The notes: generated by a model from the letters alone, not told the origin. Positions 4,507 through 38,760 are shown, numbered from the stretch's first letter. The stretch is DNA of 64,000 nt from an uncultured Oscillospiraceae bacterium (GCA_964518875.1 CAZFHI010000008.1:1929-65928), one strand, 5' to 3'. Made by a program: numbers and translations.

Positions 4507-4598
4507 GGCAAAACCTCCTGTATATATTTTAGCTTAAAGCATGAATTGTTTCAAGTTTAATACATAATATTTACCTATTATTACATGCAAAATATGTT

Positions 4599-10737: not shown

Positions 10738-10950
10738 CTATTCTCTCCTTTCAAGTTGTCACTTTATCCTTTGCGTCCAAACTCACAGTTTAACTATAGC
10801 ACATATTATATGAATACACAGAGGGCAAACAGTAAAGATTGTGTAAAATCATAAAACTCTCACAAGCAAATTGCTCATATTGAAAACTTTGGCTATATTG
10901 TGATAAACTTTATGTACAGGCAGATTTTAAATGTTTTTTGGGAGGATCAA

Positions 10951-19376: not shown

Positions 19377-19400
19377 TTAAAGTGCAGCCGGAAAGTACAT

Positions 19401-21571: not shown

Positions 21572-22381
21572 TTAACGCGTCAGCCCATAATATTTGCGCA
21601 TAATGCGGAAGAATAGACCAGGTAAAAGAATATCGTGAAGAATAACGGCAAGGCGCTGAGAGAAGGAAGCTACTATAAGCTTGCATGGCGGGTTCTTTTT
21701 ATTTACGGCCTTCGCCACTTTTTCACCAAGCTTTTCAGGTGAAAGCCCGTTTCTTTCGTCCCTTTCTATTCTGCGTACAGCGTTTTCATACGCGTTTTTA
21801 TATATATTCCCAACATTTTCTGCGTGTTCGCGGTATTTCTTCTGCCCTCCGCTGTGATCCCCCGGTTCTACAACCATAACACGCACGCCTTGGTCGTGCG
21901 TTTCCATTGACAGGGCTTCGCTGAAGCCTTCCAAAGCGTGCTTTGAAGCTGTATAAGCGCCTTCAAATGGAGTAGCGAGCAGCCCGTTTATGCTGCTCAC
22001 ATTTACTATTATACCGCGCGTTTGTCTAAGATGCGGAAGCGTTAAGCGTATCATACGCGCAGCGCCTAAAAAACAAACGTCCATAACGCTTTTAAGCTCT
22101 TCTTCCGTATAGTTTTCCGCAGCTCCAAGGTTTAAAACGCCTGCGGCATTAACCAATACGTAAGGCGGCGGCAAAGCGGACAACGCGTCGTGCGCAAAGC
22201 GTTCATCGCTTTCTTCGCTTGTTACGTCTAAATTCAGGCAGCATGAAAGCGCGGGCGTTTCGCCTTTGGAAAAGCTTCTTGCTCCTCCCACGACACAGAA
22301 GCCCTGTTTTTCAAGAGCGAGGGCAATATGAAGCCCAAGACCGCTTGAAGCTCCCGTTACCCAGGCGACTTTTTTATTCAT
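21572..22381 (-). CDS. Short-chain dehydrogenase/reductase (SDR) family oxidoreductase
   Basis: 269 aa. TGASSGLG cofactor motif, NAAG, catalytic YTASKHAL (YxxxK). Confidence 0.9.
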   Translation of the reverse strand: MNKKVAWVTGASSGLGLHIALALEKQGFCVVGGARSFSKGETPALSCCLNLDVTSEESDERFAHDALSALPPPYVLVNAAGVLNLGAAENYTEEELKSVMDVCFLGAARMIRLTLPHLRQTRGIIVNVSSINGLLATPFEGAYTASKHALEGFSEALSMETHDQGVRVMVVEPGDHSGGQKKYREHAENVGNIYKNAYENAVRRIERDERNGLSPEKLGEKVAKAVNKKNPPCKLIVASFSQRLAVILHDILLPGLFFRIMRKYYGLTR

Positions 22382-22486
22382 ACGTACTCCTTAGCATGCT
22401 TAAACGCTGCAGCGGGTTAATATGCTTTTTAGTAAGTCCGCAAGCCCGATTACCGCGTATTCAAAAACAAGTTAAAATAAGGGTCT

Positions 22487-22828
22487 TCAGCCCATATTTT
22501 CCGTCAGCTTTTTGCCGGCCAGCATATGGAAATGCAGGTGCTGCACGCTCTGGCATGCGTTTTCCCCGCAGTTAGATATAAGCCTGTATCCTCCTTTTAT
22601 GTTTTGTGAAGCGGCTATTTTTTCCGCCGCCCTGAGGCAGGCTGCTAATGCGGCGTCGCCTATGCCGTCCAGATCCGCCAGGGAAGCTGCGTGCTGCTTT
22701 GGAACAATAAGCGCGTGGAAAGGAGCCTGAGGGTTTAAATCCGCAAAGGCAAAGCAGTATTCATCCTCATAGTACTTTTTTGAAGGTACTTCTCCCGACG
22801 CTATTTTGCAAAAGATACAATCTTTCAT
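22487..22828 (-). CDS. HIT (histidine triad) family protein
   Basis: 113 aa. CIFCKI N-terminus and HLHFHML triad. 4-nt overlap with the mtaB stop. Confidence 0.93.
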   Translation of the reverse strand: MKDCIFCKIASGEVPSKKYYEDEYCFAFADLNPQAPFHALIVPKQHAASLADLDGIGDAALAACLRAAEKIAASQNIKGGYRLISNCGENACQSVQHLHFHMLAGKKLTENMG

Positions 22829-24123
22829 AAATTATCCTCCTTTTTATTTACAAGCGTCCCTGTAAAGACGCCGTTGTTGTAATCAGTAAGTTTGGTAAGA
22901 GCAATATGGTTTGGTTCAGCGCCTGATGTTTCCACCCTTAAATAGTTTTCAGTATAGCCGGCCGCCCCTCCCTTATGCTCTTCCTCGTACAAAACCTGCA
23001 CGGTTTTGTTTAAAAACATTTCAGCGTAGTTTCGCTGGGAGCGCTTTCCTATTTCAATCATCTCATGCGCCCGCTCATTTTTTACTTCTTTTTTTATTTG
23101 CAACGGCATGTCGGCGGCCTTTGTGCCTCTGCGCCTGCTGTATGGGAACACGTGCACCCTGCTGAACCGCATTTTTTCAACAAATTCAAGGCTCTCTGTA
23201 TGTTCTTGCTCTGTTTCACCAGGAAATCCGCATATTACGTCAGTGGTAATTGCAGGGTTATCAAAATATCTGCGCAAAAGGGCAACGGCGTTTGCAAATT
23301 CCTCTGTATTGTAGCGTCTTCTCATGCGCTTTAGCACGCTGTCCGATCCAGACTGCAATGACAGATGGAACTGCGGGCATAACGGCTGTATACCGCTTAT
23401 CTCTTTAACAAATTCCTCTGTTATAATCACAGGTTCTAAAGAGCCGAGCCTGAGCCTTAGCAGGCCTTCCTGCGACGCCGCTCTTATAGCGTCAATAAGT
23501 CCTGCATTGTCAAGGTCCTTTCCATAACTTGTCAAATGTATGCCTGTCAGTACTATTTCTTTATAGCCGTGTGCTATGAAGCGTTCAGCCTCTTTTTTTA
23601 TGCTTTGAACGCTCCTGCTTCTTATGCCGCCGCGTACATAAGGTATTATGCAGTAAGAGCAGAAGCGGTCGCAGCCTTCCTGTATTTTCAGAATTGCTCT
23701 TGTCTTGTGCTGATACGTTTCAACGCTTAGCGGTTCAAAGTCCGCCTTTGTTATGTTTTCAACAGCGGAAATGCCGTTTCTTTGCGCAAGCGCCCGCTTA
23801 TAAAGATTTACTATGTCTTTTCTGCGGCTGTTGCCTATAACAAGGTCAGCCCCTTTTAGCAACAGCTTATCCGCTTCTCTTTGAGCAAGACAGCCCGTTA
23901 TTATAATAAAGGCTTCCTGATTAAGCTTTCTGCATCTGCGCGCCATCTGCAGGCTTTTTCTTTCTCCGGTGTTTGTAACAATGCACGTGTTTATTACATA
24001 AACATCCGCTTTTTCAGAAGGCTCTACCTGAGTAAATCCATCCTTTATAAATTCGTCGAGCATGGCTTCGCTGTCGTACTGGTTTACCTTGCAGCCAAGC
24101 GTATAAAATGCGACTGTTTTCAT
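22825..24123 (-). CDS. mtaB: tRNA methylthiotransferase, MtaB-like (radical SAM MTTase)
   Basis: 432 aa. MTTase N-domain (FYTLGCKVNQYDSE), radical SAM cluster motif CDRFCSYC, C-terminal TRAM-like region. The position after prmA-rsmE matches yqeV/mtaB of Firmicutes. Confidence 0.85.
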   Translation of the reverse strand: MKTVAFYTLGCKVNQYDSEAMLDEFIKDGFTQVEPSEKADVYVINTCIVTNTGERKSLQMARRCRKLNQEAFIIITGCLAQREADKLLLKGADLVIGNSRRKDIVNLYKRALAQRNGISAVENITKADFEPLSVETYQHKTRAILKIQEGCDRFCSYCIIPYVRGGIRSRSVQSIKKEAERFIAHGYKEIVLTGIHLTSYGKDLDNAGLIDAIRAASQEGLLRLRLGSLEPVIITEEFVKEISGIQPLCPQFHLSLQSGSDSVLKRMRRRYNTEEFANAVALLRRYFDNPAITTDVICGFPGETEQEHTESLEFVEKMRFSRVHVFPYSRRRGTKAADMPLQIKKEVKNERAHEMIEIGKRSQRNYAEMFLNKTVQVLYEEEHKGGAAGYTENYLRVETSGAEPNHIALTKLTDYNNGVFTGTLVNKKEDNL

Positions 24124-24809
24124 TCCAGATTACCGGACAGCATCATTATTCCGGCAGCAGCTACGAGCCCTGCCGTTTCCGTGCGTAATATTCTTTTGCC
24201 AAGCGTGATAACGTCCGCCTTAATAATATCCACTTCTTCTTTTGATATGCCCCCTTCAGGGCCTATTATAACGGCTACGTCCTTAGCGCCCTTGTAAACC
24301 CTCGTTAAGCTGTTTCCCTGCGCTTCCTCCCATGGCAATATTGCCTGTTCATGCTTAGAAAGAAGCCCGGCTAAGCGTTTTACATCTATCGCGTTATGCA
24401 CCTTAGGTATTCGGCATCTTTGAGACTGCATTGCGGCTTCCTTTGCTATCCTGTTAAAACGCGGTATTTTCTTATCCGCATCGTGTACTATGCATCGCGA
24501 AAAATATACAGGAACAATGGAATTCACGCCAATTTCAGTGCATTTTTGCACTATATAATCCATCCTGGCGCCCTTTGCAAAGCCCTGGTAAAGCGTTATG
24601 CTTACAGAAGGTTCCGTTGAATGGAGAGTACCATATATTTTTGCCGAAGAATCTTCCGCTGCATATTTTGCCATATAACGCGTTCCGTTAAAAATAACCG
24701 CTATTTCTTCGCCGTCCTTAAGCCTCAGCACGCGCTTTGCATGATGGGCGTCTTCATTGTTTAAAATCGCTTTATTGTTATCTATATTATCTACATAAAA
24801 ACTATGCAA
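24120..24809 (-). CDS. rsmE: 16S rRNA (uracil1498-N3)-methyltransferase RsmE
   Basis: 229 aa. HHAKRVLRLKDGEEI PUA-like start and C-terminal IIGPEGGISKEE...LGKRILRTETA SPOUT knot motif. Confidence 0.92.
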   Translation of the reverse strand: MHSFYVDNIDNNKAILNNEDAHHAKRVLRLKDGEEIAVIFNGTRYMAKYAAEDSSAKIYGTLHSTEPSVSITLYQGFAKGARMDYIVQKCTEIGVNSIVPVYFSRCIVHDADKKIPRFNRIAKEAAMQSQRCRIPKVHNAIDVKRLAGLLSKHEQAILPWEEAQGNSLTRVYKGAKDVAVIIGPEGGISKEEVDIIKADVITLGKRILRTETAGLVAAAGIMMLSGNLE

Positions 24810-25740
24810 GTCTTTCCCCTTTTTTCGCTTTAATTGCCGTCCAATCCGCCTTACGCCTTACTTCTGCTACAGCAAAGCCATATTTCTCAAGGGCTCTGAT
24901 TACATTATCCTCTTTATCCTTAACTATGCCTGAAGCTATAAAGCAGCCGTTTTCATTTAGTATATCGTTAAGCGACGGCGCAAGCTGCACTATTGCTTCC
25001 GCCAGTATGTTGGATACTACGGTGTCAAAGCTTTTGTTTATGCCTTTTGCCAAGTCGCCAGAGATTATTTTAACAATATCGTCAACATTGTTTATTTTTG
25101 CATTGTTCCGCGCGGCTTCAACGGCAAGAGGATCCCTGTCAACGGCAAGCACTTCTTTCGCGCCTAATTTAGCCGCCGCAACAGACAGTATGCCGCTGCC
25201 AGTCCCTATGTCAAGCAGAGTGCCGCCGTTAAGATTTTCTTCAAGCAGAGTAAGGCACATATCCGTAGTTTCATGCAAACCTGTGCCAAAGGCAAGCCCA
25301 GGATCTATTTCAATTACAATTTCATCTTTTTGCGCCGTGTATTTTCCCCAGCTCGGCTTTATAACAAAACGGCTGCCTATATGCAGTGTTTTAAAGTCCT
25401 CTTTCCACTTATACTTCCATTCGTCGTCTGCAACGGATTTAGCGCTTAATTTAAGGCTTCCCAGATCTATTTTTGTTATGTTTGGCAAAGACTGCAAAGC
25501 GTTCTTTATACTTTCAAGCTGCTTTTCATCGTGAAGCCAAGCTTTAACCAGCACAACGCCTTCAGGCGGCCGCTTTATGCTTTCATCCAACAGCTCAAAA
25601 TTTTTAAGCGCCTCTTGATAAGTGGGAATATCGCCGCCGTCTATTACCTGCGCGCCCTGCGCCCCTAAAGCGTGGAACTGCTCTACTATAATGTCCGCGC
25701 CCTGCGCGTTGCTTTCAACCGTTACTTCTATCCATCGCAT
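24802..25740 (-). CDS. prmA: Ribosomal protein L11 methyltransferase PrmA
   Basis: 312 aa. MRWIEVTV start, GLAFGTGLHETT, SAM motif LLDIGTGSGILS. Confidence 0.95.
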   Translation of the reverse strand: MRWIEVTVESNAQGADIIVEQFHALGAQGAQVIDGGDIPTYQEALKNFELLDESIKRPPEGVVLVKAWLHDEKQLESIKNALQSLPNITKIDLGSLKLSAKSVADDEWKYKWKEDFKTLHIGSRFVIKPSWGKYTAQKDEIVIEIDPGLAFGTGLHETTDMCLTLLEENLNGGTLLDIGTGSGILSVAAAKLGAKEVLAVDRDPLAVEAARNNAKINNVDDIVKIISGDLAKGINKSFDTVVSNILAEAIVQLAPSLNDILNENGCFIASGIVKDKEDNVIRALEKYGFAVAEVRRKADWTAIKAKKGERLA

Positions 25741-25742
25741 AA

Positions 25743-26864
25743 TTACTGCTCCGTTTTGTTTAATTGTGCTTTATCATTAACGCTTTTTTCATTAGTGGAT
25801 TTTTTATGTTCGTCTTCTTTCGCCGCATCTTCCGGAAGTATATCTTCTTTTGTAAGCAGCATAAGCTCTTCCCTCGTTATATTCTGCTTGGAAGCAAGCC
25901 TGTCCGCCTGGCGCGCCACAGCCGTTTCAAACAGATTGCGCACCCCCCTTGCGTTGCCAAAGCCCGTTACGTCCACGCTTTTTTCTTCAAGCGTTTTTCT
26001 GAGCGCGTCCTCCGCGTCAGCAGACAGCTCATAACCGGCTTTTTTCATTCGCAGAGAAAAAATGCCCATCATTTCGTCAACGCTGTAATCCGGGAAATAT
26101 ATAAAGCGGTTGAAGCGGGACTCAAGCCCTGGATTGGAATTTATAAAATCCTTCATAAGGTTTGTATAGCCTGCGACTATTACGATAAGGTTATCCCTGT
26201 TGTCTTCCATAGCCTTAAGCAGGGTTTCCACAGCTTCCTGACCGTAATCCTGCGGACCTCTGCTTGTCAGGGCATAGGCTTCGTCTATAAACAGCACCCC
26301 GCCAAGCGCTTTGCCTATTACTTCCTGCGTTTTTATCGCTGTCTGCCCAACATAGCCTGCAACAAGGCCGCTTCTGTCCACTTCAACGAGGTGGCCTTTT
26401 GAAAGTATTCCCAGGGAATGATATATGCGGCTCATAAGTCGCGCAACCATGGTTTTCCCTGTACCTGGGTTGCCGGTAAAGACCATGTGCAGCGATAATT
26501 CCTCCGTAGGAAGGGAATGCTCTTTTCTCAGCTTATATATGCTTACTAAGTTTATAAGGCTGTTTACTTCTTTTTTAACTGAATCGAGCCCTATATACTC
26601 GTTTAGCTCTTTTTTAAGGTCTTCTATATTTTCTTTGGGGATTTTATCCTCCTGCCGGCTTTCGTCCTGCTTAACTTTCTTATTTTCATTTTTTTCGCCT
26701 TCAGAAAAAACATCCGGCACCTTTGGATAGCCTTCAGGAGGCGTGTCCCTGCGTCCCCACAGATCTTCGCCTACGTCGCGCAGATTGCGCTCAGTCATCT
26801 GGCGTATTATATCATTTTGCAGCTCGATTATTTTAAGCCTTCGTTTATCCTTGTCTTCTTCCAT
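25743..26864 (-). CDS. AAA+ ATPase of the SpoVK/CbxX (CfxQ) family with charged N- and C-terminal extensions
   Basis: 373 aa. IGLDSVKKEVNSLINL, Walker A GNPGTGKTMVA, Walker B VLFIDEAYAL, GYVGQTA. The stop lies 2 nt before the prmA start. Confidence 0.78.
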   Translation of the reverse strand: MEEDKDKRRLKIIELQNDIIRQMTERNLRDVGEDLWGRRDTPPEGYPKVPDVFSEGEKNENKKVKQDESRQEDKIPKENIEDLKKELNEYIGLDSVKKEVNSLINLVSIYKLRKEHSLPTEELSLHMVFTGNPGTGKTMVARLMSRIYHSLGILSKGHLVEVDRSGLVAGYVGQTAIKTQEVIGKALGGVLFIDEAYALTSRGPQDYGQEAVETLLKAMEDNRDNLIVIVAGYTNLMKDFINSNPGLESRFNRFIYFPDYSVDEMMGIFSLRMKKAGYELSADAEDALRKTLEEKSVDVTGFGNARGVRNLFETAVARQADRLASKQNITREELMLLTKEDILPEDAAKEDEHKKSTNEKSVNDKAQLNKTEQ

Positions 26865-26900: not shown

Positions 26901-26928
26901 AAAAAAATTACACGCCCAAATGGGCGTG
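26901..26928 (-). terminator. Terminator-like hairpin inside the 5' leader of the AAA+/prmA operon (possible attenuator or end of a small transcript)
   Basis: Minus-strand CACGCCC-AUUU-GGGCGUG followed by UAAUUUUUUU, 37-64 nt upstream of the AAA+ start codon. No upstream minus-strand gene for it to terminate. Confidence 0.5.
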
Positions 26929-26980
26929 CTGAAATTAATCCGAAAGTTCAAAAAAACGTTTAAAAACATAAATTATATGC

Positions 26981-27009
26981 TTGCAGACGCTTTGATATTG
27001 CAATAATAT
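26981..27009 (+). promoter_or_regulatory. Sigma-A-type promoter of the 27.0-32.3 kb envelope cluster
   Basis: TTGCAG, 17 nt, TAATAT, about 45 nt upstream of the ATG at 27055 (RBS AAGGAGGA). Confidence 0.5.
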
Positions 27010-27054: not shown

Positions 27055-27594
27055 ATGCACAAGTCAAACCGTATCGCCTTAGGCGCTATGTTTTTAGCCG
27101 TGATGCTGGTGCTCGGTTATATAGAATCCCTTATTCCATTAGGCGTGCCTGGCATAAAATTAGGGCTTGCAAACAGCGTTCTTCTGCTTTCTTTGTACTG
27201 GCTTGGCATTCCTTTTTCATTTGGGCTTATGTGTGCCAAGGTTTTGCTCAGCGGGTTTTTATTTTCAAACCCCAACGCAATGCTTTACAGCTTTGCAGGC
27301 GGCGTTCTTTCAATGCTGGGCATGATATTAACCGTGTACGTAATGAAAGGCGTAAGCCCTTTAGGCGCCGCAATAACAGGAGCTGTTTTACACAACGTGG
27401 GGCAGATAGCCGTTGCCATGCTTATGCTTAATACCGCAAAGCTTCTTTATTATTTGGCAATACTTATGTTAGCGGGCGTTGTTATGGGTTTTATAACCGG
27501 CAACGTTTGCAAACATCTGCTGCGCTATCTGCCAAAAAGCAGGCGCGAGCGCTTTTTTAAGAGCTCTGACAATAAAGATTCAATGGAAGCATAG
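27055..27594 (+). CDS. Gx transporter family membrane protein (PF07456, often mis-annotated as heptaprenyl diphosphate synthase component I)
   Basis: 179 aa with about 5 TM helices. N-terminal LGYIESLIPLGVPGIKLGLANSVLLLSLY matches my recollection of that family signature. Confidence 0.65.
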   Translation: MHKSNRIALGAMFLAVMLVLGYIESLIPLGVPGIKLGLANSVLLLSLYWLGIPFSFGLMCAKVLLSGFLFSNPNAMLYSFAGGVLSMLGMILTVYVMKGVSPLGAAITGAVLHNVGQIAVAMLMLNTAKLLYYLAILMLAGVVMGFITGNVCKHLLRYLPKSRRERFFKSSDNKDSMEA

Positions 27595-27615
27595 AGTAAC
27601 TATAAGGAGGATTGC

Positions 27616-29646
27616 ATGGCTGTGCCCGCAAGAGATATTTCACTGTTAATGCCTTCGCTCATTACGCTTTACAACTTTATTTTTTGTATATTGGCATCTA
27701 ACGCCTTAACGCAAAAGCCCATATTCGGCGGCGCTCTTTTTATGGTCGCTCAGGTTGCCGGCCTTGCGGGTAAATATATATTCAGCCACAGCTACAGAAA
27801 CCTATTAAACAAAAAAGAGCGCGTAATCGTATATGTGCTTACGTTGCTTTGTTTTTTTGCAAGCATAGCTTTAATTTTGTTTTATCCAAAAAGAAGCGTT
27901 CTGCCTGAAGCGTGGGTTGTTTTTGCCATATCGCTCGCTACGTGGCTCCGCTCTCTAGGCTTAAGCCGCCTTATAGATTCCCCTATAACGTACAAAATGT
28001 CAGGCGTGCAGAAGGGCATTCGAATGGCGGAAATATCCGTACTGTTTTTAGCTGTGGTAACAGCCGTTCTGTTTTCTACTCAAAACGCGCAGACAGCCTG
28101 GTACATCACAGGGGCGTTCGCATTAAACTCTCTGGCGGAAGCCGTTACGCTTTCAAAATACAAAAGGTTTGATTATAAAGGCAGTCAGGTAAATACTGAC
28201 GCCGTACAAAAGGCAAGCAGTATAAACGCTTACAATGTGTTCGTGCGTCTTGTGGTGTTTTCCGCGGCGGCGCTGCAGATTACGCAAATACTCATTTTTT
28301 CTTTTATAGCTACAACGGCAGACACCGTCTTTTTCGCTTTTCTTATAGCGATACTTACAAGCTTTGTTATAGCGCAGATAGTCCGCTTCTACATGGCGCA
28401 AAAAAAGGAAAGCGATGTAAGCAATCTGCTGCTTTTTGGTCTGTCCCTCTGGGTAATAAGCCTTTTAATGTTCTGGCACCAGATCAACAGCAGCAATCAG
28501 GTAATGCGTTATATATCGCTCGCCGCTTGCAGCGCCGGAATACTTTTGAGCATATCCGCGCTGTCCCGTCTTGAAAAAAACATGCAGGAAGTGCTGCTTT
28601 TTGCAGTAGACAATGAGGTAATGAAATCTTTGCGGCAGACAAAGTCCATAGTGATAGCCTTCGCTTCTTTAATAGGGCAGATGTTAGCTCTTATAGGTCT
28701 CGCCCTTTTAAGCTTCTTTGAAAACGATAAATTCCTAAGCATGGAAAACGTGTTTCAACCGACGCTTATACTGCCCGCTCTCGTTTTAGCGGCGGCCGCG
28801 GCGATTTCAGCGCTGCGTTTTCCTCTTACAAAGCAGCACTTAAACAAGCTGCATAATTATATGCTGCTCAAGCAAAACGGCGAAACCAACGCGCCTTTGC
28901 AGAAACAGCTCGAAAACGTTATTGTAAAAGTAAGCAGGAGACGCTACGGCTTAAAGCTTATAGGCAAATTTGTAAGCCTTTTTATGCGTGTGCAGATTGA
29001 AGGAGAAGAAAAAGTTCCTACGGGCGACGGCATAAGCAATGTATTTATATGCAACCACGGAGAGCTTTACGGGCCGGTCTGCTGCTATATATTTATGCCT
29101 TTCCCGTTCAGGCCGTGGATTACGGATAGAATGATGGATAAAAGCCTTACTGTTAAACATATATACGAAGGCACGTTCATGAGACAAAATTGGATGCCTA
29201 AATCCTGGCAGATGCCGATGGCTAAGTTTGTCGCCCCAATAATAAACTGGGCCATGCATTCAGCCTACGGCATACCTGTATACAAGGACAATCCTAAACT
29301 TTTAATTAAAACCTTCCGCGAAACCGCCATATGCATGCAGGCGGGAGACGATATTTTAATATTTCCTGAAAACCCTGCGGCAGAAAACAGCAATGATAAT
29401 TTGTATTTAAGAAGCGGCATAGGCGAATTTTTTAAAGGCTTTACGCTTGTAGCGCCCATATATTATCAGAAAACGGGCAAGTGCTGCCGCTTTATACCAG
29501 TTTATGCAGATAAGAAGCGCCGCAAACTAAGCTTTGGCGACTACGTGCAGTACAACCCGGATAACAGCTCCGATATGGAAAGCAATCGCATTTGCGATGA
29601 AGTGCGCAGCGCCATACTTGATTTAGCGGAAGGCGGAGAAAAATGA
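27616..29646 (+). CDS. Fusion protein: N-terminal polytopic membrane domain (~10-11 TM, MFS/LplT-like by topology only) plus C-terminal PlsC/LPLAT-like acyltransferase domain
   Basis: 676 aa. Residues ~1-440 are hydrophobic helices. The C-terminal ~230 aa carry acyltransferase-like blocks VFICNHGELYGP (HX4D position occupied by G) and ILIFPENPAA (FPEGTR-like). Confidence 0.55.
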   Translation: MAVPARDISLLMPSLITLYNFIFCILASNALTQKPIFGGALFMVAQVAGLAGKYIFSHSYRNLLNKKERVIVYVLTLLCFFASIALILFYPKRSVLPEAWVVFAISLATWLRSLGLSRLIDSPITYKMSGVQKGIRMAEISVLFLAVVTAVLFSTQNAQTAWYITGAFALNSLAEAVTLSKYKRFDYKGSQVNTDAVQKASSINAYNVFVRLVVFSAAALQITQILIFSFIATTADTVFFAFLIAILTSFVIAQIVRFYMAQKKESDVSNLLLFGLSLWVISLLMFWHQINSSNQVMRYISLAACSAGILLSISALSRLEKNMQEVLLFAVDNEVMKSLRQTKSIVIAFASLIGQMLALIGLALLSFFENDKFLSMENVFQPTLILPALVLAAAAAISALRFPLTKQHLNKLHNYMLLKQNGETNAPLQKQLENVIVKVSRRRYGLKLIGKFVSLFMRVQIEGEEKVPTGDGISNVFICNHGELYGPVCCYIFMPFPFRPWITDRMMDKSLTVKHIYEGTFMRQNWMPKSWQMPMAKFVAPIINWAMHSAYGIPVYKDNPKLLIKTFRETAICMQAGDDILIFPENPAAENSNDNLYLRSGIGEFFKGFTLVAPIYYQKTGKCCRFIPVYADKKRRKLSFGDYVQYNPDNSSDMESNRICDEVRSAILDLAEGGEK

Positions 29647-31586
29647 CCGCCGTACCTGTTTTTTTGGCGTTTGAAGTATGCGGGGTAACGCTTGTAAACC
29701 AGCTTATTCCCAAAAAAAGCCCTCTGTGCAGAGTATGGATAGGCTTAGTCTTTGGCATAATGATTATGATGTGGCTGCCTGCGCTTGTAGCGTTTTTCAT
29801 TCCGTTCTCGGTTGTCTCAAATCTTATAGCGTTAGGAATAGCCGCCGTAACGGCAGGTTCAGCTGTATTTATTTGTAAACAAAGGCCTTCCTTTGCGCTT
29901 AGCGAAAAGGACAGAGGAGATTTGAAAGCCATAGCTCTTGTAGCCGTGCCTTTGACTGCTCTTTCCGTGTACCTGCTGCATACGCATATTCTGCGCCCTG
30001 TTGAAGGCAGCCTGCACGCGGGGCAGTCTACCTATGGCGATCTGCCCCTGCACCTGTCAATAGCTGCTTCGCTTAGAAACAAGCAGCTTCCGCCTATATA
30101 CAGCATATACCCGAACGAAAGACTGTCTTATCCGTTTTTAATGGACAGCCTTTCCACAAGCTTTATGCTCTTTGGATCCAGCCTACGTTTCAGCATGATA
30201 TTCCCCGCAGCCGTTATGATGCTGCTCGTTTTTGCCGGGTTTATGCTGTTGGCTTTAAGCTTAAGCGAAGAAAGGCGCGCGGCGGCGCTGGCGTCCTTGC
30301 TGCTTTTTATAAACGGCGGATTGGGCTTTATATATTCGCTGGATATGGCGGGCGTAAGCTTAGGGAGCGCTGGAAGCAACGAGCTTAAGTACGGCGTATG
30401 GTTAGACAGGCTTAGTACAATATTTAACGGCTGGTACCAGACCCCTGCAAACCACGCGGAGTTTAACACGTATAACCTCAGATGGAGCAATATAATAGTC
30501 GATATGTTCGTTCCGCAGCGGACTTTCTTAGCGGGATGGGTATTTTTGCTCCCCTGCATATATTTAATGTATGATTTTATCAAATCAAAAAATCGCGATG
30601 TCAGGCAGCTTGTGCTGCTCGGAACCATTGCAGGCGGCATGCCGCTTATACATACGCACAGCTTTTTAGCGCTTGTGCTGCTGAGCTTCGCATGGTTTTT
30701 ATGGGATATTATAAAAAACAAGAATATAAAGCCCTGGCTTATATATATAGCGGTAGCGGGCGCATTGTCCCTGCCTCAGCTGTTTCTTTTCACATTCAAG
30801 CAGTCGTCCGCGAGCGAACACTTTTTAAATCTGCATTTTAACTGGGTAAACAACGACGGAGGCTTAAAAGACCCTTATATATGGTTCTACGTAAAGAACG
30901 TAGGGATTCCTTTTTTGCTTATTATATTGTCTCTTTTTGAAAAAAACAAAAAACACCGTTTTATATATTTCGGCGCCTTTATGATATTTGTTCCTGCGGA
31001 GCTTATACGCTTTCAACCCAATGTGTACGACAACAACAAGCTTTTCTATGTCTGGTACGCGCTCTGCACTATCCCTATAGCGGAATACGCCTTTTCAGTT
31101 TTTGATGCTTTAAAAAAATTTAAGTCGCGCAAAATAATCGCAGTTCTTTGCTGCCTTATGTTCTTTTTAACAGGCTCGCTTTCTATAATACGCGAAGTTA
31201 AAAGCGACTACCAGATGTTTTCAAAGGAAGATGTGGAACTATCCCAATGGGTAGAAGAAAACACCAGCGACGACGCTCTCTTTTTAAGCGGCACTCAGCA
31301 CATAAACCCCGTTTCATCGCTTGCAGGAAGGAAGATAGTGTGCGGACCCGCCATGTGGCTTTACTACCACGGCTTTGATACCGCTGAAAGAGAAAAAGAC
31401 ATACAGCTTTTTTACTCTTCGCCGTCTTTTGGCAATGATATTTTAAAAAAATACGGCGTCGACTACATACTGTTTACGCCGTTTGAAGCTTCCAGATACG
31501 GCGTAAATAAAGACGATCTTGCGTCGGCGTACAAAACACTTTATGACAAAGGCAGCACGGCCGTATTTAAGGCAGAATATGATTGA
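29643..31586 (+). CDS. Large polytopic membrane protein, GT-C-fold glycosyltransferase-like (ArnT/PMT/YfhO-type topology). Family not resolved.
   Basis: 647 aa with at least 12 predicted TM helices. Loop motif STYGDLPLHLSIAASL follows the early helices. Soluble C-terminal region (YYHGFDTAEREKDIQLFY...KKYGVDYILFTPFE). ATGA overlap with the upstream gene. Confidence 0.4.
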   Translation: MTAVPVFLAFEVCGVTLVNQLIPKKSPLCRVWIGLVFGIMIMMWLPALVAFFIPFSVVSNLIALGIAAVTAGSAVFICKQRPSFALSEKDRGDLKAIALVAVPLTALSVYLLHTHILRPVEGSLHAGQSTYGDLPLHLSIAASLRNKQLPPIYSIYPNERLSYPFLMDSLSTSFMLFGSSLRFSMIFPAAVMMLLVFAGFMLLALSLSEERRAAALASLLLFINGGLGFIYSLDMAGVSLGSAGSNELKYGVWLDRLSTIFNGWYQTPANHAEFNTYNLRWSNIIVDMFVPQRTFLAGWVFLLPCIYLMYDFIKSKNRDVRQLVLLGTIAGGMPLIHTHSFLALVLLSFAWFLWDIIKNKNIKPWLIYIAVAGALSLPQLFLFTFKQSSASEHFLNLHFNWVNNDGGLKDPYIWFYVKNVGIPFLLIILSLFEKNKKHRFIYFGAFMIFVPAELIRFQPNVYDNNKLFYVWYALCTIPIAEYAFSVFDALKKFKSRKIIAVLCCLMFFLTGSLSIIREVKSDYQMFSKEDVELSQWVEENTSDDALFLSGTQHINPVSSLAGRKIVCGPAMWLYYHGFDTAEREKDIQLFYSSPSFGNDILKKYGVDYILFTPFEASRYGVNKDDLASAYKTLYDKGSTAVFKAEYD

Positions 31587-31800
31587 CCGTTTTTTAACGT
31601 ATTCCTTGCAGCACAATAAAAAAGTTAAGGCGATGTGGCTCGAAGGAGATAAAATAAAGCAAGGCAACATTACAGTAAAAAAAATAGACGGCGATATTAT
31701 ATACTGCGCATTATCAAAATCTAAAGCGCTAAAAGCCATCGATAAACGGCAGCTGTTAAGCTTAGGCTACGCCCGCGGAGACAGCGGAGAAACTATTTAG
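31579..31800 (+). CDS. Small hypothetical protein (73 aa), translationally coupled to the GT-C-like gene
   Basis: ATG at 31579 overlaps the upstream stop by 8 nt (ATGATTGA). Sequence MIDRFLTYSLQHNKKVKAMWLEGDKIKQGNITVKKIDGD... has no TM helix. The ORF track starts at 31519 inside the upstream gene. Confidence 0.45.
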   Translation: MIDRFLTYSLQHNKKVKAMWLEGDKIKQGNITVKKIDGDIIYCALSKSKALKAIDKRQLLSLGYARGDSGETI

Positions 31801-31812
31801 CAAGGAGAACTT

Positions 31813-32283
31813 ATGAAGGAAAAAATACAGAATCTGCTTAAAAGCAAGGACTTACAGCAGATAATTAAATACATAATTTTCGGTATATTAACGACGCTTG
31901 TAAACTGGGCCGTATATTTTTCGCTTACTTTTTTGCTGAAGCCTGAAAATTACCCTAAGGGCAGCTTTGAAAACGCCGCAATACTCAATGTTTCAAACCT
32001 GTTAGGCTGGATATTGAGCGTTCTGTTCGCATTTTTCACAAACCGGAAATACGTTTTTAACTCAACGTCGAAAGACAAAAAAAGCAAATGGAAGGAGTTC
32101 GTTCTGTTCGTGTCCGCAAGGGCTTTAAGCCTGCTGCTCTTTGATATAGCCCTTTACAACGTGTGCATCTACGCCTTAAATATGCAGCATGGCATAGTTA
32201 AAATACTCATGAACGTGCTAGTTGTAATATTCAACTATTTCGCAAGCCGCTTCGTTGTATTCAGACAAAAAAAACATAATTAG
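31813..32283 (+). CDS. GtrA-family membrane protein (polyprenyl-phosphate-sugar flippase-like)
   Basis: 156 aa, 4 TM helices. IKYIIFGILTTLVNWAVYF and the FNYFASRFVVFR ending are typical of GtrA-like proteins. RBS AAGGAGAA. Confidence 0.8.
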   Translation: MKEKIQNLLKSKDLQQIIKYIIFGILTTLVNWAVYFSLTFLLKPENYPKGSFENAAILNVSNLLGWILSVLFAFFTNRKYVFNSTSKDKKSKWKEFVLFVSARALSLLLFDIALYNVCIYALNMQHGIVKILMNVLVVIFNYFASRFVVFRQKKHN

Positions 32284-32311: not shown

Positions 32312-32944
32312 TTAAAACTCCTTCTTTTTGTAAATCCTTACAGAGCATACAAAAGACAACAGGTTAATAATAACAGTAAGCGCAAACAATATGCAGCCCG
32401 CAAGCTTTATGTTAACGCTTGAAAATACAGAAGGCCAGTTCGTTAATAAGTCTTTATTTGAACCGAAGTAAGAAAAAACAGCGAATACCACAAAGTAAAG
32501 AGCTACAAAAACCAGCCTTGATTTTTCCGCACCGAACTTATACATAAACGGAAGCTGAATGTCCGAAATAACCGTTGTAAGGAAAAGCATGGCAGGCAAA
32601 AGAACGTACCATGGCAAAATATAAGCATCAGCCTGAGGAATAAATCTTATAATAAACGCAAAGGCCGTGCCTATAAACGCCAGACACCAGATCGGTACAT
32701 AGCGGCTTAATACTATGGTTTCTTTTTTTACAGGCCCTGCGGCTATATACTGGTCGGAGTGCGATTCCGCGTCGTTTCCAAAAAGCATGCCGATAAAAAT
32801 AAGCGGTATTAAAATGAACATCAGCGGCATCGCTATAAAATTTTCTTCGTTGAAATTGTATATTCCAATTAATATTATCAAGGCCGCCAAAATTAATATG
32901 GGTTTTTTTATTGCAATAAAGTCCTTATAAATCAACGCTTTCAT
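32312..32944 (-). CDS. ABC-2-type transporter permease
   Basis: 210 aa, 6 hydrophobic helices. Start abuts the stop of the ATPase gene (1-nt overlap). Confidence 0.65.
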   Translation of the reverse strand: MKALIYKDFIAIKKPILILAALIILIGIYNFNEENFIAMPLMFILIPLIFIGMLFGNDAESHSDQYIAAGPVKKETIVLSRYVPIWCLAFIGTAFAFIIRFIPQADAYILPWYVLLPAMLFLTTVISDIQLPFMYKFGAEKSRLVFVALYFVVFAVFSYFGSNKDLLTNWPSVFSSVNIKLAGCILFALTVIINLLSFVCSVRIYKKKEF

Positions 32945-33795
32945 CAGCGGTTCCTCCTTATCATGTTAACCATAATGTCTTCAATGCTCGGTTTTTCCAA
33001 TTCCATATTTTTTGGAGCAAGCTCTCTTACAAGCAGCACTTCAACGCCGAATTTATGCGTTCTTTTTCCCACTATGGCTTTTCTGTCTATGCTTTCGAGC
33101 TGCTCCTTTCTAATAGAAGCCTTGCCGTATTTATCAATAAGGCCGTCCTTGGTATCCATAAAAAGCAGCCTGCCTTCATGTATAAAAGCAATATAGTCTG
33201 CAATTTTTTCAAGATCAGACAATATATGCGACGACACCAAAACAGTATTTTCTTCATTCTGAATGTATTCAAGCAGCAAGTCTAAAACATCGTCGCGTAT
33301 AACAGGGTCAAGCCCGCTCGTTGGTTCATCTAAAAGCAGCAGCTTAGCGTTATGGGAAAGTGCAAGCGCAATGCCCAGCTGCATTTTCATGCCGCGTGAA
33401 AAATATTTTATCGTCTTGTTTTCAGGCAGCTTAAAGTGGTTTAACAATCGTGAAAACGAAGCGTCGTCCCAGGCTTTATTGTACAGTTTTTTATGAAAAT
33501 TTCTAACGGTTTCAAGCGTCATTTCCTTTGGAAGATAAAGATTGTCAAATACGAACGCTATATCTTTTTTCATTTCTGTTGTAAAGCTGTGTATATCCTT
33601 ATCGAATATTTCAATTTTGCCGGAATCAGCTTCTATTAAGTCAAGCAGCAGCTTTATCGTAGTGCTTTTGCCCGCGCCGTTTTCTCCTATGTACCCTACG
33701 ATAGAGCCGCGCGGAACAGATAGGTTTATGGGACCAAGCGTAAAATTGCCGAACGTCTTTTTTACGTCTGTCATTTTAATGGCATTGTTAATCAT
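32944..33795 (-). CDS. ABC transporter ATP-binding protein
   Basis: Walker A GENGAGKST, signature FSRGMKMQL, Walker B LLLDEPTSGLD. 8-nt overlap with the GntR gene. Confidence 0.92.
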   Translation of the reverse strand: MINNAIKMTDVKKTFGNFTLGPINLSVPRGSIVGYIGENGAGKSTTIKLLLDLIEADSGKIEIFDKDIHSFTTEMKKDIAFVFDNLYLPKEMTLETVRNFHKKLYNKAWDDASFSRLLNHFKLPENKTIKYFSRGMKMQLGIALALSHNAKLLLLDEPTSGLDPVIRDDVLDLLLEYIQNEENTVLVSSHILSDLEKIADYIAFIHEGRLLFMDTKDGLIDKYGKASIRKEQLESIDRKAIVGKRTHKFGVEVLLVRELAPKNMELEKPSIEDIMVNMIRRNR

Positions 33796-34165
33796 TATTT
33801 TCCTCCAGTATATTAAGCATGTTTATAAGCTCTGAATGAGGGATGCCGGCTATTCTAGCATAATGTATGGCATCAGAAAGACTTGCCTCAATATTTTTCA
33901 AAAGCTTTTCTTTCACCAGCTCAGGATTTTGAGCAGCAACAAAACTTCCCTTGCCTTGAACGGAATTTATAAAGCCGTCTCTTTCCAGCTCATCGTAGGC
34001 GCGCTTTGTCGTAATGACGCTTATCCTGAGCTCTTTTGCCAATATGCGTATGGAAGGCAAGAGCTCATTTTCCTGAAGCTCATTTTTTAATATAGCGTCT
34101 CGAATCTGGTTTTTTATTTGCAGGTATATAGGCTCGTCGCTTGAGTTTTTTATAAGTATATTCAC
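33788..34165 (-). CDS. GntR-family transcriptional regulator, YtrA subfamily
   Basis: 125 aa. PIYLQIKNQIRDAILKNELQENELLPSIRILAKELRISVITTKRAYDELERDG winged HTH with a short C-terminal tail. Heads an ABC operon, as YtrA-type regulators do. Confidence 0.9.
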   Translation of the reverse strand: MNILIKNSSDEPIYLQIKNQIRDAILKNELQENELLPSIRILAKELRISVITTKRAYDELERDGFINSVQGKGSFVAAQNPELVKEKLLKNIEASLSDAIHYARIAGIPHSELINMLNILEENND

Positions 34166-34197
34166 GTTTCACCTCCATTCAAAGCTGTTTATATTGT

Positions 34198-34215
34198 ACA
34201 TATACACTTATATGT
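34198..34215. promoter_or_regulatory. Candidate GntR/YtrA operator (inverted repeat)
   Basis: ACATATA-CACT-TATATGT, 33-50 nt upstream of the GntR start codon. Confidence 0.35.
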
Positions 34216-34230
34216 TGTCAATACCCCGGC

Positions 34231-34258
34231 AATAAAAAAGAGGTCGTTTAAGACCTCT
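34231..34258 (-). terminator. Terminator of the ferredoxin gene
   Basis: Minus-strand AGAGGUC-UUAAAC-GACCUCU followed by UUUUUUAUU. Confidence 0.8.
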
Positions 34259-34279
34259 AATATTAAAGTTGTTTTTTTG

Positions 34280-34465
34280 TCAGGCTTCCTCTATAGCAGA
34301 AACCGGGCAGTTTTCTTTTGCTTCAGCCGCTTTTTCAATGTTTTCAGCAGAAACCTCTTCATCGCTGGCCTTAGCGACTCCTTCGTCTGTCATAGAAAAA
34401 ACTTCCGGGCATATTCCTTCGCACATGCCGCAGCCTATGCATTCATCGTTAACAAAATACTTCAT
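34280..34465 (-). CDS. Small [4Fe-4S] ferredoxin
   Basis: ATG at 34465 with RBS AAAGGAGG; the ORF track extends to 34519. 61 aa: MKYFVNDECIGCGMCEGICPEVF...ENCPVSAIEEA (CxxCxxC...CP plus a distal CP). Confidence 0.9.
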   Translation of the reverse strand: MKYFVNDECIGCGMCEGICPEVFSMTDEGVAKASDEEVSAENIEKAAEAKENCPVSAIEEA

Positions 34466-34592
34466 AGCAAACCTCCTTTTCAGATTAAAAACAGCTTTAA
34501 GCTGAACGCTTAAGGACAACCTTGCGTTTTGCGTATATCAAGGCTTTTCCCTTAGCTTACGGCTTCATAATACTACAAAACGGCATATATTT

Positions 34593-34610
34593 ATGTTGCT
34601 ATAGCAACAT
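34593..34610. repeat. 18-bp perfect palindrome ATGTTGCTATAGCAACAT (candidate operator, function unknown)
   Basis: Read directly from the sequence. Lies ~130 nt upstream of the ferredoxin start and ~60 nt downstream of the DUF5107-like gene end. Confidence 0.4.
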
Positions 34611-34667
34611 TTTATCGAGCTTTTGCTTTTTTTATGCTGATTGTATAATTTTTTGCTACTCTTCAGC

Positions 34668-36740
34668 CTATCTCATTCTAAAATCCAAGTGCGCAGGCGG
34701 CGGATAATCTCTCTTTACCTGCGACATTATTTCTTCTGTTGCTGGTTTGCCGCTTGTTTTTTTAAGCGCGAACAGTTCGAACCACAATTCTGTAAGCTTA
34801 ACCTCCCCTTCCCGCACGTCTGTAAGCTGTACAGGGCCGCGCAGCATTTTTTCAGCCAGATCATAGCCGCCGGTTTTGATAAGCGCTTCTATGTACAGCA
34901 TTTTAACGCGCCCAAGCTCTTGCTTATTTTTATCAAGCTTTTTATACAGCTCTATTGTTTCATCGAAACGTTCGGCTTCGTTAAACGCCCGCATGGCTTC
35001 AATAATCAGATGCCTTTCCGGAAGCATTTGAACCGCTTGTTTTAATTTATCCGCCGCTGAATTTAAATCGCCTTCCCATTGATACAGCACCGCGAGGCAG
35101 CGAAGCGCCCATGGGTTTTGAGCTGCTTTTATAGATTTTTTAAGGTTTTCTTTTCCTGAAGTAATTTCGTTTCTGTAAAGCTGCATTACTGCAAGCAGAT
35201 AATAGCCGTACCAGTGATTGCTTTTTTTGTTATTTATAGATTCGCTCAGCAGCTTCTCCCACTCATCGCCTATCTGATAGCTAAGCGGTTTGCTTAAAGG
35301 ATCTATGCATGGCAGGCGTCCTTCTTTAACAAGTTCCGCCCACGGGCTTTCTTGCTCTCCTATATTTTCGTTGCTAAATATAAGTCCCGCGTCGTTAAAG
35401 GACTTGTCCAGCATTTTCTGCACCGCCGCCCAGCCATCTGCAGAATGTACTATTTTGCCGTGCTTATTGTCTAATTCGGCTCGCGCTGTTTTATGCATGT
35501 TTTCTAATTGTTCGCGCGGGCAGGCCTTATTAAGCGCGCTTTCAACAGCTTTAACGGCCTTATTCCAGTCTTCACCCTGGGTTGCTTCGGCGTCCGCTTC
35601 AATCGCACCGTAGGCTTCCAACCAGTCAAACGTTTGATTAGCTTTCATGGGCAGATGCTCTAACTGCGTACGCGCAAGCCCCGCCTGCAGTTCAATGTAT
35701 GCCTGACCCGGTTCAGATAAAAACTGCTGCCAGTTTCTTCCGCCGTCCCCTGTTCCCCATACGAACAGCTTTCTTCCCTTAAGCGTATCAGTAGATGTCT
35801 GCACAAGGCCGTATCCGTTTGAATCAACGGCGGAAATCCACCTGCGCTGTCCTTTTGGCAAGTCAAAAAAGAAGTCCATTGACTGCTTAATCTGCGTTGT
35901 TCTGCTTATGTCCCAACAAGTCTGCATTTTGCTTAAATCTTGCGAAGACTTTTCATGGTTATCCCTGTATTCTTTAACGAACATATACGGTATTGAAACC
36001 TTGGACATTTCCCCGCCGTAGCCCCAGCGGTAGGCTGATTCGGCAGGAACAATGACGCGCACGTCGCTTCGCTCGTTAACGGCTATGTTACTCCACCAGT
36101 AAACCGCCGTATCTTTATTGCCCGCGTTATCTATGCGCACACGAACAAACAAAAACTTTGATTTTTCTGGAAGCATAGCTTCAACACGGTATACAAGTTT
36201 GCGCACCCTTTCATACTGGTACATGCGCAGCACAGGCGTTCCGTCCGATAAAGAAAGGGTTTCCGCAAAAACATTGTCCACCGTAAAAGGCGTGTGTCCT
36301 ATAATGCCTATGTTCCACTCAACGCCTCCTGAAACCCACGCATTGCGCAAGGCCAAATTGCAGGGCTGAAAAACCGGGTTGCAGTGCAATAGGTCTTTAT
36401 TCCTTTTCTTATCCTCAAGCGACCAAAGCCTGCCGCCTATTTCAGGCAAAAAAACAGCTTTTAGAAATTCATTTTCCAATACAACGGCCTTCCATTCCTT
36501 AGGACGCCTGTTCCTGTCAAAACTATCCTGAATCATGTATGGCAAAATACCGTTTACTCTTCCCCATCCCATGTATTTTGCTTCTTCTTCCGATATAGTT
36601 TTTTTGTCATATTTTATAGAAGCATGGCAGTCGGCATCACGTTTAAGATCCGGCAGCGGGTTTAATTCTCCAAGATCGGCTGATAAAATGGATATTTTTG
36701 TTAGGCTTAAGCTCGACATGTATAATAACCTCATTATCAT
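34668..36740 (-). CDS. DUF5107-like N-terminal domain protein with C-terminal TPR repeats
   Basis: 690 aa. The N-terminal ~330 aa (WSLEDKKRNKDLLHCNPVFQP, GGVEWNIGIIGHTPFT) resemble DUF5107 as I remember it. The C-terminal half has TPR-like helical repeats (YGYYLLAVMQLYRNE, ALRCLAVLYQWEGD). Confidence 0.45.
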   Translation of the reverse strand: MIMRLLYMSSLSLTKISILSADLGELNPLPDLKRDADCHASIKYDKKTISEEEAKYMGWGRVNGILPYMIQDSFDRNRRPKEWKAVVLENEFLKAVFLPEIGGRLWSLEDKKRNKDLLHCNPVFQPCNLALRNAWVSGGVEWNIGIIGHTPFTVDNVFAETLSLSDGTPVLRMYQYERVRKLVYRVEAMLPEKSKFLFVRVRIDNAGNKDTAVYWWSNIAVNERSDVRVIVPAESAYRWGYGGEMSKVSIPYMFVKEYRDNHEKSSQDLSKMQTCWDISRTTQIKQSMDFFFDLPKGQRRWISAVDSNGYGLVQTSTDTLKGRKLFVWGTGDGGRNWQQFLSEPGQAYIELQAGLARTQLEHLPMKANQTFDWLEAYGAIEADAEATQGEDWNKAVKAVESALNKACPREQLENMHKTARAELDNKHGKIVHSADGWAAVQKMLDKSFNDAGLIFSNENIGEQESPWAELVKEGRLPCIDPLSKPLSYQIGDEWEKLLSESINNKKSNHWYGYYLLAVMQLYRNEITSGKENLKKSIKAAQNPWALRCLAVLYQWEGDLNSAADKLKQAVQMLPERHLIIEAMRAFNEAERFDETIELYKKLDKNKQELGRVKMLYIEALIKTGGYDLAEKMLRGPVQLTDVREGEVKLTELWFELFALKKTSGKPATEEIMSQVKRDYPPPAHLDFRMR

Positions 36741-36811
36741 TAAAAATTAAATGATATAATAACATTATTTTTCTTTAAAAACAACGGTATTTTGTTTTAA
36801 AAAAGTATTTT

Positions 36812-36870
36812 ATAAAAAAATTACCGCGCAGATGCAAAGCCTGAGTCCAAGCTTGTTCATCCGCGCGGTA
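36812..36870 (-). terminator. Terminator of the second flavoprotein reductase gene
   Basis: Minus-strand UACCGCGCGGAUG-(23 nt)-CAUCUGCGCGGUA (13-bp stem, one mismatch) followed by AUUUUUUUAUA. Confidence 0.75.
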
Positions 36871-36899
36871 TTGTTTAATTTATTAAAGTTTAAAACGAG

Positions 36900-38690: not shown

Positions 38691-38760
38691 AGCAAATCCC
38701 TCCTTAGAGCTTAATTGACAATACAATTGTAGTATAATACACTTTTAGTGATATGTATGT

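Follow-up and report, generated by a model that had tools for sequence, protein, structure and literature searches.

Extracytoplasmic glycosylation by a GtrA-family protein together with a GT-C glycosyltransferase is already known as a type of system, and its characterized three-component representatives often have scattered parts (PMC8035078, Table 1). In Listeria the parts are unlinked (GtlA, Lmo0933; GtcA, Lmo2549; GtlB, Lmo0626), as they are in Staphylococcus aureus (CsbB, 00713; GtcA, 02722; YfhO, 01213) (PMC8035078). Mycobacterium tuberculosis pairs a GtrA protein, Rv3789, with the GT-C enzyme AftA, for which no glycosyltransferase of family 2 (GT2) supplies the donor (PMC5964476). In membrane-lipid metabolism, the transporter LplT and the acyltransferase Aas are fused in some bacteria, in forms that are uncharacterized, and LplT-Aas has been identified so far in Gram-negative bacteria only (PMC11416262). 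Here, we analyze a locus at 27055-32283 of a 64,000-nucleotide stretch of DNA (hereafter the window) from an uncultured Oscillospiraceae bacterium (GCA_964518875.1, CAZFHI010000008.1:1929-65928), in which genes for a GT-C-fold protein, a 73-residue protein (s73) and a GtrA protein follow those for a Gx-family membrane protein and a transporter–acyltransferase fusion. Our favored reading is that this is a composite operon, in which a conserved GT-C/s73/GtrA trio is joined by a separate fusion unit and an unrelated Gx gene; we put its probability at roughly 0.55.

A conserved gene trio

The five open reading frames (ORFs) encode, in order, the Gx protein (27055-27594, + strand; 179 residues), the fusion (27616-29646, +; 676 residues), the GT-C-fold protein (29643-31586, +; 647 residues), s73 (31579-31800, +; 73 residues counted from the ATG) and the GtrA protein (31813-32283, +; 156 residues). 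Read directly from the sequence, the Gx and fusion genes are separated by a 21-nucleotide spacer containing AAGGAGG, the fusion and GT-C genes overlap by 4 nucleotides (ATGA, 29643-29646), the GT-C and s73 genes overlap by 8 (ATGATTGA, 31579-31586), and a 12-nucleotide spacer with AAGGAG precedes the GtrA gene. This reading bears out the ORFs and all four junctions given in a preliminary description of the locus, and also its picture of a + strand island in a mostly minus-strand region: the flanking genes, at 21572-26864 and at 32312-38726, all lie on the - strand, and - strand ORFs outnumber + strand ones by 43 to 20 over the whole window.

Comparison with relatives separates these genes into groups of very different persistence. 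With a single genome scanned per species, at least 570 species loci with the GT-C gene were detected, of which 80 were retrieved and searched by tblastn with all window proteins; the closest (L001) comes from a Christensenellales metagenome-assembled genome (MAG) and has a GT-C protein of 83% identity. With the GT-C gene as the reference (80/80 loci), s73 lies directly downstream of it in 73/80 and the GtrA gene downstream of s73 in 58/80. The fusion immediately precedes the GT-C gene in 24/80, all in one clade, and the Gx gene is found upstream in just 3/80 (L001, L002 and L018), as well as in a further locus, L092. In a neighbor-joining tree of the GT-C proteins—where L002 is mis-flagged by a zero-gap rule—the fusion-bearing loci make up one clade comprising about half of the tree, while the other half keeps s73, mostly keeps GtrA and has no fusion. 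Clustering of ORFs across the 80 loci showed the remaining neighbors of the GT-C gene to be unrelated housekeeping genes, namely an aldolase, LigA, an M42 peptidase and permeases. The three-gene core is therefore strongly syntenic, and no partner of the GT-C gene is kept more faithfully with it than s73, which the preliminary description had treated as incidental; the five-gene unit, by contrast, is not syntenic.

The preliminary description had instead proposed one five-gene system combining acylation and glycosylation, in which the fusion, with Gx, replaces the GT2 that charges the lipid carrier. Not only are the genes tightly packed, with overlapping stop and start codons, but the fusion adjoins the GT-C gene throughout a clade of 24 loci, and all five genes recur in L092 and L018, at a GT-C identity of 64%. 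These points favor a single system. Yet the Gx gene is almost never adjacent, half of the GT-C tree does without the fusion while retaining s73 and mostly GtrA, and fusion homologs at 36-37% identity occur alone. A Zn-peptidase gene (c5) and other flanking genes are also conserved in the fusion clade, so the adjacency of fusion and GT-C genes may partly be plain vertical synteny. Taken together with the evidence on the sugar donor and on the fusion discussed below, we judge the single five-gene system to be distinctly improbable.

The Gx protein itself was correctly identified: it matches PF07456 over profile positions 2-146 of 147 (E 5e-32; 111.4 bits, the cut-off being 30). Judged by its distribution, the gene appears to be a recent, lineage-specific passenger that is merely co-transcribed and lies outside the conserved module.

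The GT-C-fold protein

An AlphaFold2 (AF2) model of the 647-residue protein, made with an input alignment of 25 homologs, has a predicted local distance difference test score (pLDDT) of 85 and a predicted TM-score (pTM) of 0.89. When this model was compared with the PDB using Foldseek, GT-C enzymes filled the top 32 places, and for 23 of these matches E was ≤ 1e-3. The best match is CeDPY19 (E 1.2e-8); AglB, yeast and human STT3, and PglB match at E 2e-7 to 3e-5, ArnT at 4.5e-5 and AftA at 1.1e-4, the last with the highest TM-scores (0.50-0.53). Modeling thus confirms the predicted GT-C fold, and the GT-C call made in the preliminary description stands. At the level of sequence, Dpy19 (PF10034) is the only Pfam signal, at 27.1 bits, which is below the gathering cut-off of 27.2; the same profile weakly matches 14/25 members of the GT-C family, with a best E of 9.3e-8. 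No YfhO, GtrC or PMT_2 match was found in Pfam, and a sequence search against the PDB gave no significant match.

Model helices and the positive-inside rule together predict 14 transmembrane (TM) segments, with lysine or arginine at 12/37 residues of the short inside loops and 2/43 residues of the short outside loops. Loops 116-180, 235-292 and 391-412 are predicted to lie outside, together with a C-terminal α/β domain (521-647), and on this topology all conserved loops of the protein are extracytoplasmic, as expected of a GT-C enzyme. GT-C enzymes have a conserved catalytic acidic residue in their first long loop outside the membrane; in the homolog alignment, D133 and H137 of loop 116-180 are invariant and D168 is nearly so. 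The three stretches of the model with the lowest pLDDT (227-239, 266-280 and 402-411) fall on the family's best-conserved motifs, NGGLGFxYxxD, YQTPANHAEFxTYNLRWSN and NWVNN (residues 224-241, 265-287 and 400-407), and are probably mobile active-site loops. We infer that this protein is the core enzyme of the module and represents a GT-C family without a characterized member.

What such an enzyme modifies is less readily deduced. One suggestion is that it is a protein glycosyltransferase of the DPY19, STT3/PglB/AglB or PMT type, acting on secreted or surface proteins. Protein-modifying GT-C enzymes (DPY19, AglB, STT3 and PglB) take up the first 21 places among the Foldseek matches, and Dpy19 is the sole family that Pfam detects. 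An acceptor is not defined by similarity of fold, however, and ArnT, which acts on lipid A, and AftA, which acts on arabinogalactan, match with equal or better TM-scores. Furthermore, no candidate gene for a secreted substrate is conserved beside the GT-C gene, and s73 carries neither a signal peptide nor a TM segment. For these reasons a protein glycosyltransferase strikes us as a long shot.

The family is broad. More than 1000 close homologs, all annotated as "hypothetical", are present in MAGs of Christensenellales and Clostridia, and a profile search of 1.84 billion representative sequences recovered 3869 proteins at E ≤ 1e-3, of which 1186 also lie at E ≤ 1e-30. Distant members, likewise all "hypothetical", occur in Aenigmatarchaeota, Curtissbacteria and Verrucomicrobiota, where the only Pfam signals are sub-threshold ones to PMT_2, DUF2298 or DUF6798. 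At three loci—from Curtissbacteria, of the candidate phyla radiation (CPR), from Aenigmatarchaeota and from a metagenome contig (L086, L087 and L088)—distant members directly adjoin genes for GT-C proteins of PMT_2/PMT type, and the archaeal one also adjoins genes for a 224-residue GT2 and an LPG_synthase_TM protein resembling the MprF flippase. These PMT_2-type neighbors and the short archaeal GT2 would fit a GT-C family that depends on polyprenyl-phosphate sugars. None of the annotated homologs bears a functional name, and a literature search on the GT-C family, the gene combination and Christensenella envelope glycosylation returned known Firmicute, Gram-negative and mycobacterial systems only, in line with the earlier statement that this gene combination is not a recognized, described system.

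Partners of the GT-C protein and the sugar donor

The 156-residue protein matches PF04138 (GtrA) across the full profile, 1-117 (E 1.3e-18), its 67.8 bits lying far over the cut-off of 26.1, and it is also recovered by jackhmmer from an E. coli YfdG seed; the family assignment in the preliminary description is thereby upheld. By analogy with its family, it would serve as a translocase for a polyprenyl-phosphate sugar or as a partner that recruits the GT-C enzyme.

The 73-residue protein belongs to a family of 496 homologous clusters, 73-97 residues long, in which RFLxYSL and YARGD(D/S)G(D/E)T are conserved motifs. It has no match in Pfam, NCBIfam or the PDB, a profile search of the PDB included, and a Pfam search with 26 members identified no family, with one member matching YolD at E 0.042. 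As described earlier, the protein appears soluble: no signal peptide or TM segment was found, and hydropathy on the Kyte–Doolittle scale reaches a maximum of 0.61 over 19 residues, which leaves no hydrophobic segment. These same properties make s73 an unlikely secreted acceptor for a protein-glycosylating GT-C enzyme. Its start at 31579 is supported by the N-termini of 73 homologs, all of which begin at a conserved M-I/V-x-R-F-L; an alternative TTG start at 31519 was rejected on this basis. Look-ups that set out from two s73 homologs led again to positions flanked by GT-C and GtrA genes. By gene order among relatives, s73 is tied to the GT-C gene as its obligate genomic partner. The protein represents a new family, and its co-conservation would be consistent with a cytoplasmic accessory or regulatory subunit.

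The third component of the described systems, a GT2, was sought with jackhmmer, seeded with E. coli GtrB (YfdH) and an archaeal GT2, in six-frame translations of the window and 85 loci. As the preliminary description had stated, none is present in the 64-kb window, which in this respect differs from a linked three-component system. Nor did ORF clustering of the 80 loci reveal a GT2 or donor-synthesis gene as a conserved neighbor. The only true GtrB-like GT2 among the relatives is found in L054 (8760-9728, - strand), where it shares 38% identity with YfdH over 298 residues, extends through the C-terminal TM helices and, in convergent orientation, is 1.2 kb from the GtrA gene. The preliminary description took the missing GT2 to be a distinctive feature, and a window without one does lend the single five-gene system some support. 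Since parts are often unlinked in characterized systems, those of Listeria and S. aureus among them, a window without a linked GT2 is nevertheless not unusual, and in L054 a GtrB-like enzyme sits beside the trio.

The transporter–acyltransferase fusion

The AF2 model of the 676-residue protein (pLDDT 78, pTM 0.72) consists of 6+6 TM helices followed by an α/β domain. Residues ~1-400 form 12 TM helices with a fold like that of the major facilitator superfamily (MFS), and residues ~445-676 form an acyltransferase domain of the PlsC or lysophospholipid acyltransferase (LPLAT) kind. In Foldseek searches of the PDB, the N-terminal ~440 residues match FLVCR1/2, MFSD2A, SPNS2 and other MFS proteins (E 1.5e-3 to 1e-2, probability 1.0), of which MFSD2A is a lysolipid transporter and SPNS2 a transporter of sphingosine-1-phosphate (S1P). 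The C-terminal domain matches Thermotoga PlsC (5kym; E 8.6e-3, TMt 0.52). While the window protein scores 18.8 bits against PF01553, below the cut-off of 23, that profile is matched by 22/22 members of the fusion family, with a best E of 3.2e-9, and together with the fold this places the domain in the family. The fusion of a polytopic membrane domain with a PlsC-like one, as originally described, is thus well founded. A sequence search of the PDB with the protein gave no significant match, a profile of the family alignment found a weak match to PlsC only (E 0.027), and no MFS family match was found in Pfam or NCBIfam. Within the family, N480, H481, E483 and F583-P584-E585-N586 are invariant, the last of these corresponding to the FPEGT-like block III of such acyltransferases.

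Because both termini of a 12-TM MFS protein are cytoplasmic, the acyltransferase domain of the fusion is expected to be cytoplasmic as well. This is the architecture of a lysophospholipid transporter–acyltransferase rather than of a carrier-charging enzyme, and an MFS transporter with a cytoplasmic PlsC domain would be unable to load a sugar onto polyprenyl phosphate. The proposal that the fusion sits where the GT2 would be, and with it that element of the single five-gene system, is therefore not supported. The closest parallel in domain logic is LplT-Aas, and yet membership of that group at the level of sequence was rejected: the relation to the Aas acyltransferase domain is weak (E 0.0096), and the AMP-binding (acyl-ACP synthetase) domain of Aas is absent, the protein stopping after its PlsC-like domain. 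With no sequence relation to LplT and one weak relation to Aas, we describe the fusion as LplT-Aas-like in its working, not as a member of that group. On the strength of its model, it is likely a lipid or lysolipid transporter–acyltransferase.

Homologs of the fusion also live independently of the trio. Around those at 36-37% identity, which occur in two different contexts, neither a GT-C nor a GtrA gene lies within 6-10 kb, while a homolog at 40% identity sits in the four-gene arrangement of fusion and trio. In the first of the stand-alone contexts (L081-L083; in L081 the fusion homolog spans 10001-12091), the conserved block runs DUF2232, rplI, dnaB, an HD-domain protein, a 265-residue protein and the fusion, which suggests a housekeeping membrane-lipid role for these homologs. 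In L085, a stand-alone homolog is divergent from three genes on the - strand (2681-5790; 156, 127 and 727 residues) that have no Pfam match and, by tblastn, no detectable relation to GtrA, s73 or GT-C.

It is conceivable that the four genes from fusion to GtrA are nonetheless coupled in building a lipoglycan or glycolipid, along the lines of mycobacterial phosphatidylinositol mannosides (PIM), lipomannan (LM) and lipoarabinomannan (LAM). The fusion would flip and acylate the anchor, the GT-C enzyme with GtrA would extend or decorate it outside, and the donor synthase would be encoded elsewhere. Mycobacterial GT-C enzymes build acylated PIM/LM/LAM from polyprenyl-phosphate sugars, and Rv3789 has been proposed to recruit AftA in M. 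tuberculosis (PMC5964476). In the present locus, AftA is among the best structural matches of the GT-C protein and gives its highest TM-scores, the MFS domain resembles lipid-transporting MFS proteins, and the four-gene order is kept in one clade. Set against this, fusion homologs stand alone in other lineages, in which the trio is elsewhere or absent, neither neighbor clustering nor jackhmmer located a conserved anchor-synthesizing glycosyltransferase nearby, and such a glycolipid is without evidence in these uncultured organisms. We consider such a lipoglycan line unlikely.

A working model and its difficulties

The composite reading, under which the operon belongs to an uncultured Christensenellales bacterium, can be cast as a sequence of steps. 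A sugar would first be loaded onto polyprenyl phosphate at the cytoplasmic face by an enzyme encoded elsewhere, most likely a GtrB/CsbB-like GT2. The lipid-linked sugar would next be re-oriented across the membrane, or handed over, by the GtrA protein, as the behavior of its family implies. Finally, the GT-C enzyme would transfer the sugar outside to a wall polymer, to a lipoglycan or lipoteichoic acid (LTA), or to a secreted protein, both the chemistry and the acceptor being conjectural. Working separately, the fusion would most likely bring a lyso-lipid or glycolipid in from the outer leaflet for re-acylation inside, in the manner of LplT-Aas. In one clade it may have been recruited 5' of the trio, possibly via a shared envelope lipid or polymer. 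A shared substrate such as a lipoglycan could account for this adjacency, as could simple operon accretion. What the analysis shows directly is the folds, the predicted topology, the pattern of co-conservation and the independence of the fusion family; the steps built on them are inferred.

Several observations weigh against the composite reading. The donor-charging enzyme is absent by jackhmmer from the window and from the flanks of 79/80 relatives, so the polyprenyl-phosphate-sugar step rests on analogy, with indirect backing from the neighboring GtrA gene and from the GtrB-like GT2 near the trio in L054. The Foldseek TM-scores of the GT-C model are moderate (0.36-0.53), and the sub-threshold Dpy19 match spans the C-terminal third alone (residues 467-611; profile 446-589 of 653). 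For the fusion, the MFS assignment depends on fold matches with marginal E values of ~1e-3, and the relation to E. coli LplT is nil at the level of sequence (hhalign probability 0.6%). The acyltransferase domain lacks the Asp of the catalytic HX4D motif of block I; at +5 from H481 there is an invariant glycine, G486, and an invariant Glu lies at +2. Most pointedly for a reading that treats the fusion as a separate unit, within its clade the fusion stays directly 5' of the GT-C gene down to 36% fusion identity, a persistence that, with the 4-nucleotide overlap seen here, makes real functional coupling possible.

A bolder version of such coupling would have the trio, widespread in Christensenellales and related Clostridia, act as an undescribed type of extracytoplasmic glycosylation machine, with s73 as an obligate cytoplasmic subunit, that works together with the fusion to build or repair an acylated glycolipid or lipoglycan in the clade to which the window belongs. 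The fusion would then be the first LplT/Aas-like protein in a Gram-positive lineage. We offer this as a tentative idea with the odds clearly against it, and retain the composite operon of trio, fusion unit and Gx gene as the preferred account.

Upstream signals and neighboring genes

The sequence TTGCAG-17-TAATAT, put forward earlier as the single promoter of the operon, is indeed present at 26981-27009 on the + strand. Its role as a promoter is another matter: as a sigma-70-like candidate it agrees with 7/12 consensus positions and is weak, it falls below the threshold of a promoter scanner and was not reported by it, and the scanner's 14 hits in the region match what chance would give (13.7 expected from shuffled sequence), so the promoter is unproven. 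Scanning the full window against Rfam gave no riboswitch or leader upstream of the operon. The sole Rfam element in the window is a full-length cobalamin riboswitch (RF00174; 20407-20590, - strand, 79.4 bits), directly upstream of - strand ORFs at 17597-20312 whose translations resemble an ABC uptake system of binding protein, permease and ATPase.

Between the operon and an AAA+ ATPase-like gene on the - strand (25743-26864), in which a Walker A motif, GNPGTGKT, is visible in translation, lies a strong terminator-like hairpin (26910-26929, - strand), with an 8-bp stem that includes 6 GC pairs and is accompanied by a T-run. The hairpin is intergenic, and is upstream of the start of a - strand gene rather than 3' of one; its role may be that of a leader or attenuator, or of a bidirectional element. 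The ATPase-like gene is also divergent from, and upstream of, the GT-C locus in seven relatives (L037, L057, L067, L074, L076, L002 and L018), at 56-86% identity.

Comparison with known systems

Abundant in the gut and heritable, the Christensenellales are nearly all uncultured, and next to nothing is known of their envelope chemistry. Surface glycans shape recognition by phages and by the immune system. A GT-C family with fixed s73 and GtrA partners provides a concrete handle on surface glycosylation in this group, and s73 may represent a new kind of accessory subunit. The MFS-PlsC fusion, as modeled, is a candidate for the uptake and re-acylation of lysolipids in Gram-positive bacteria.

With GtrA/GtrB/GtrC of O-antigen and the GtcA/CsbB/YfhO and GtcA/GtlA/GtlB systems that act on teichoic acids in Firmicutes, the locus shares a small GtrA-family protein and a polytopic GT-C protein with conserved loops facing outward (PMC8035078, PMC5836110, PMC7389260). 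Incomplete linkage of the components recalls Listeria and S. aureus. The GT-C protein is nevertheless of a different family, its one Pfam match being to Dpy19 and borderline; the linked pair here is GT-C with GtrA rather than GT-A with GT-C, the window having no GT2; and the 73-residue soluble protein encoded between the GT-C and GtrA genes is without counterpart in the described systems.

DPY19, a tryptophan C-mannosyltransferase (PDB 7zli, PF10034), is both the best structural match of the 647-residue protein and the only Pfam family detected in it. Identity between the two is 12%, however, the Pfam score is below threshold, and the 647-residue protein is bacterial, with 14 predicted TM segments and three extra N-terminal helices, and there is no evidence that it uses a WxxW protein acceptor. 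The Rv3789/AftA pair of M. tuberculosis offers a precedent of another kind, with a GtrA gene near a GT-C gene and no GT2, as here, in that case because another pathway supplies the donor. Relative to AftA, Foldseek alignment identity is 10-12%, there are no donor genes of UbiA/DprE type nearby, and the organism belongs to Clostridia, not Actinobacteria.

With LplT-Aas, the fusion shares the domain logic of an MFS-fold transporter followed by a cytoplasmic PlsC-type acyltransferase; it differs in having no acyl-ACP synthetase domain, in the change of the HX4D Asp to Gly, and in not being homologous to LplT. Measured against these precedents, three features of the locus have not been described before: the GT-C family itself, its apparently obligate 73-residue partner, and the clade-specific link between the trio and an MFS-PlsC fusion.

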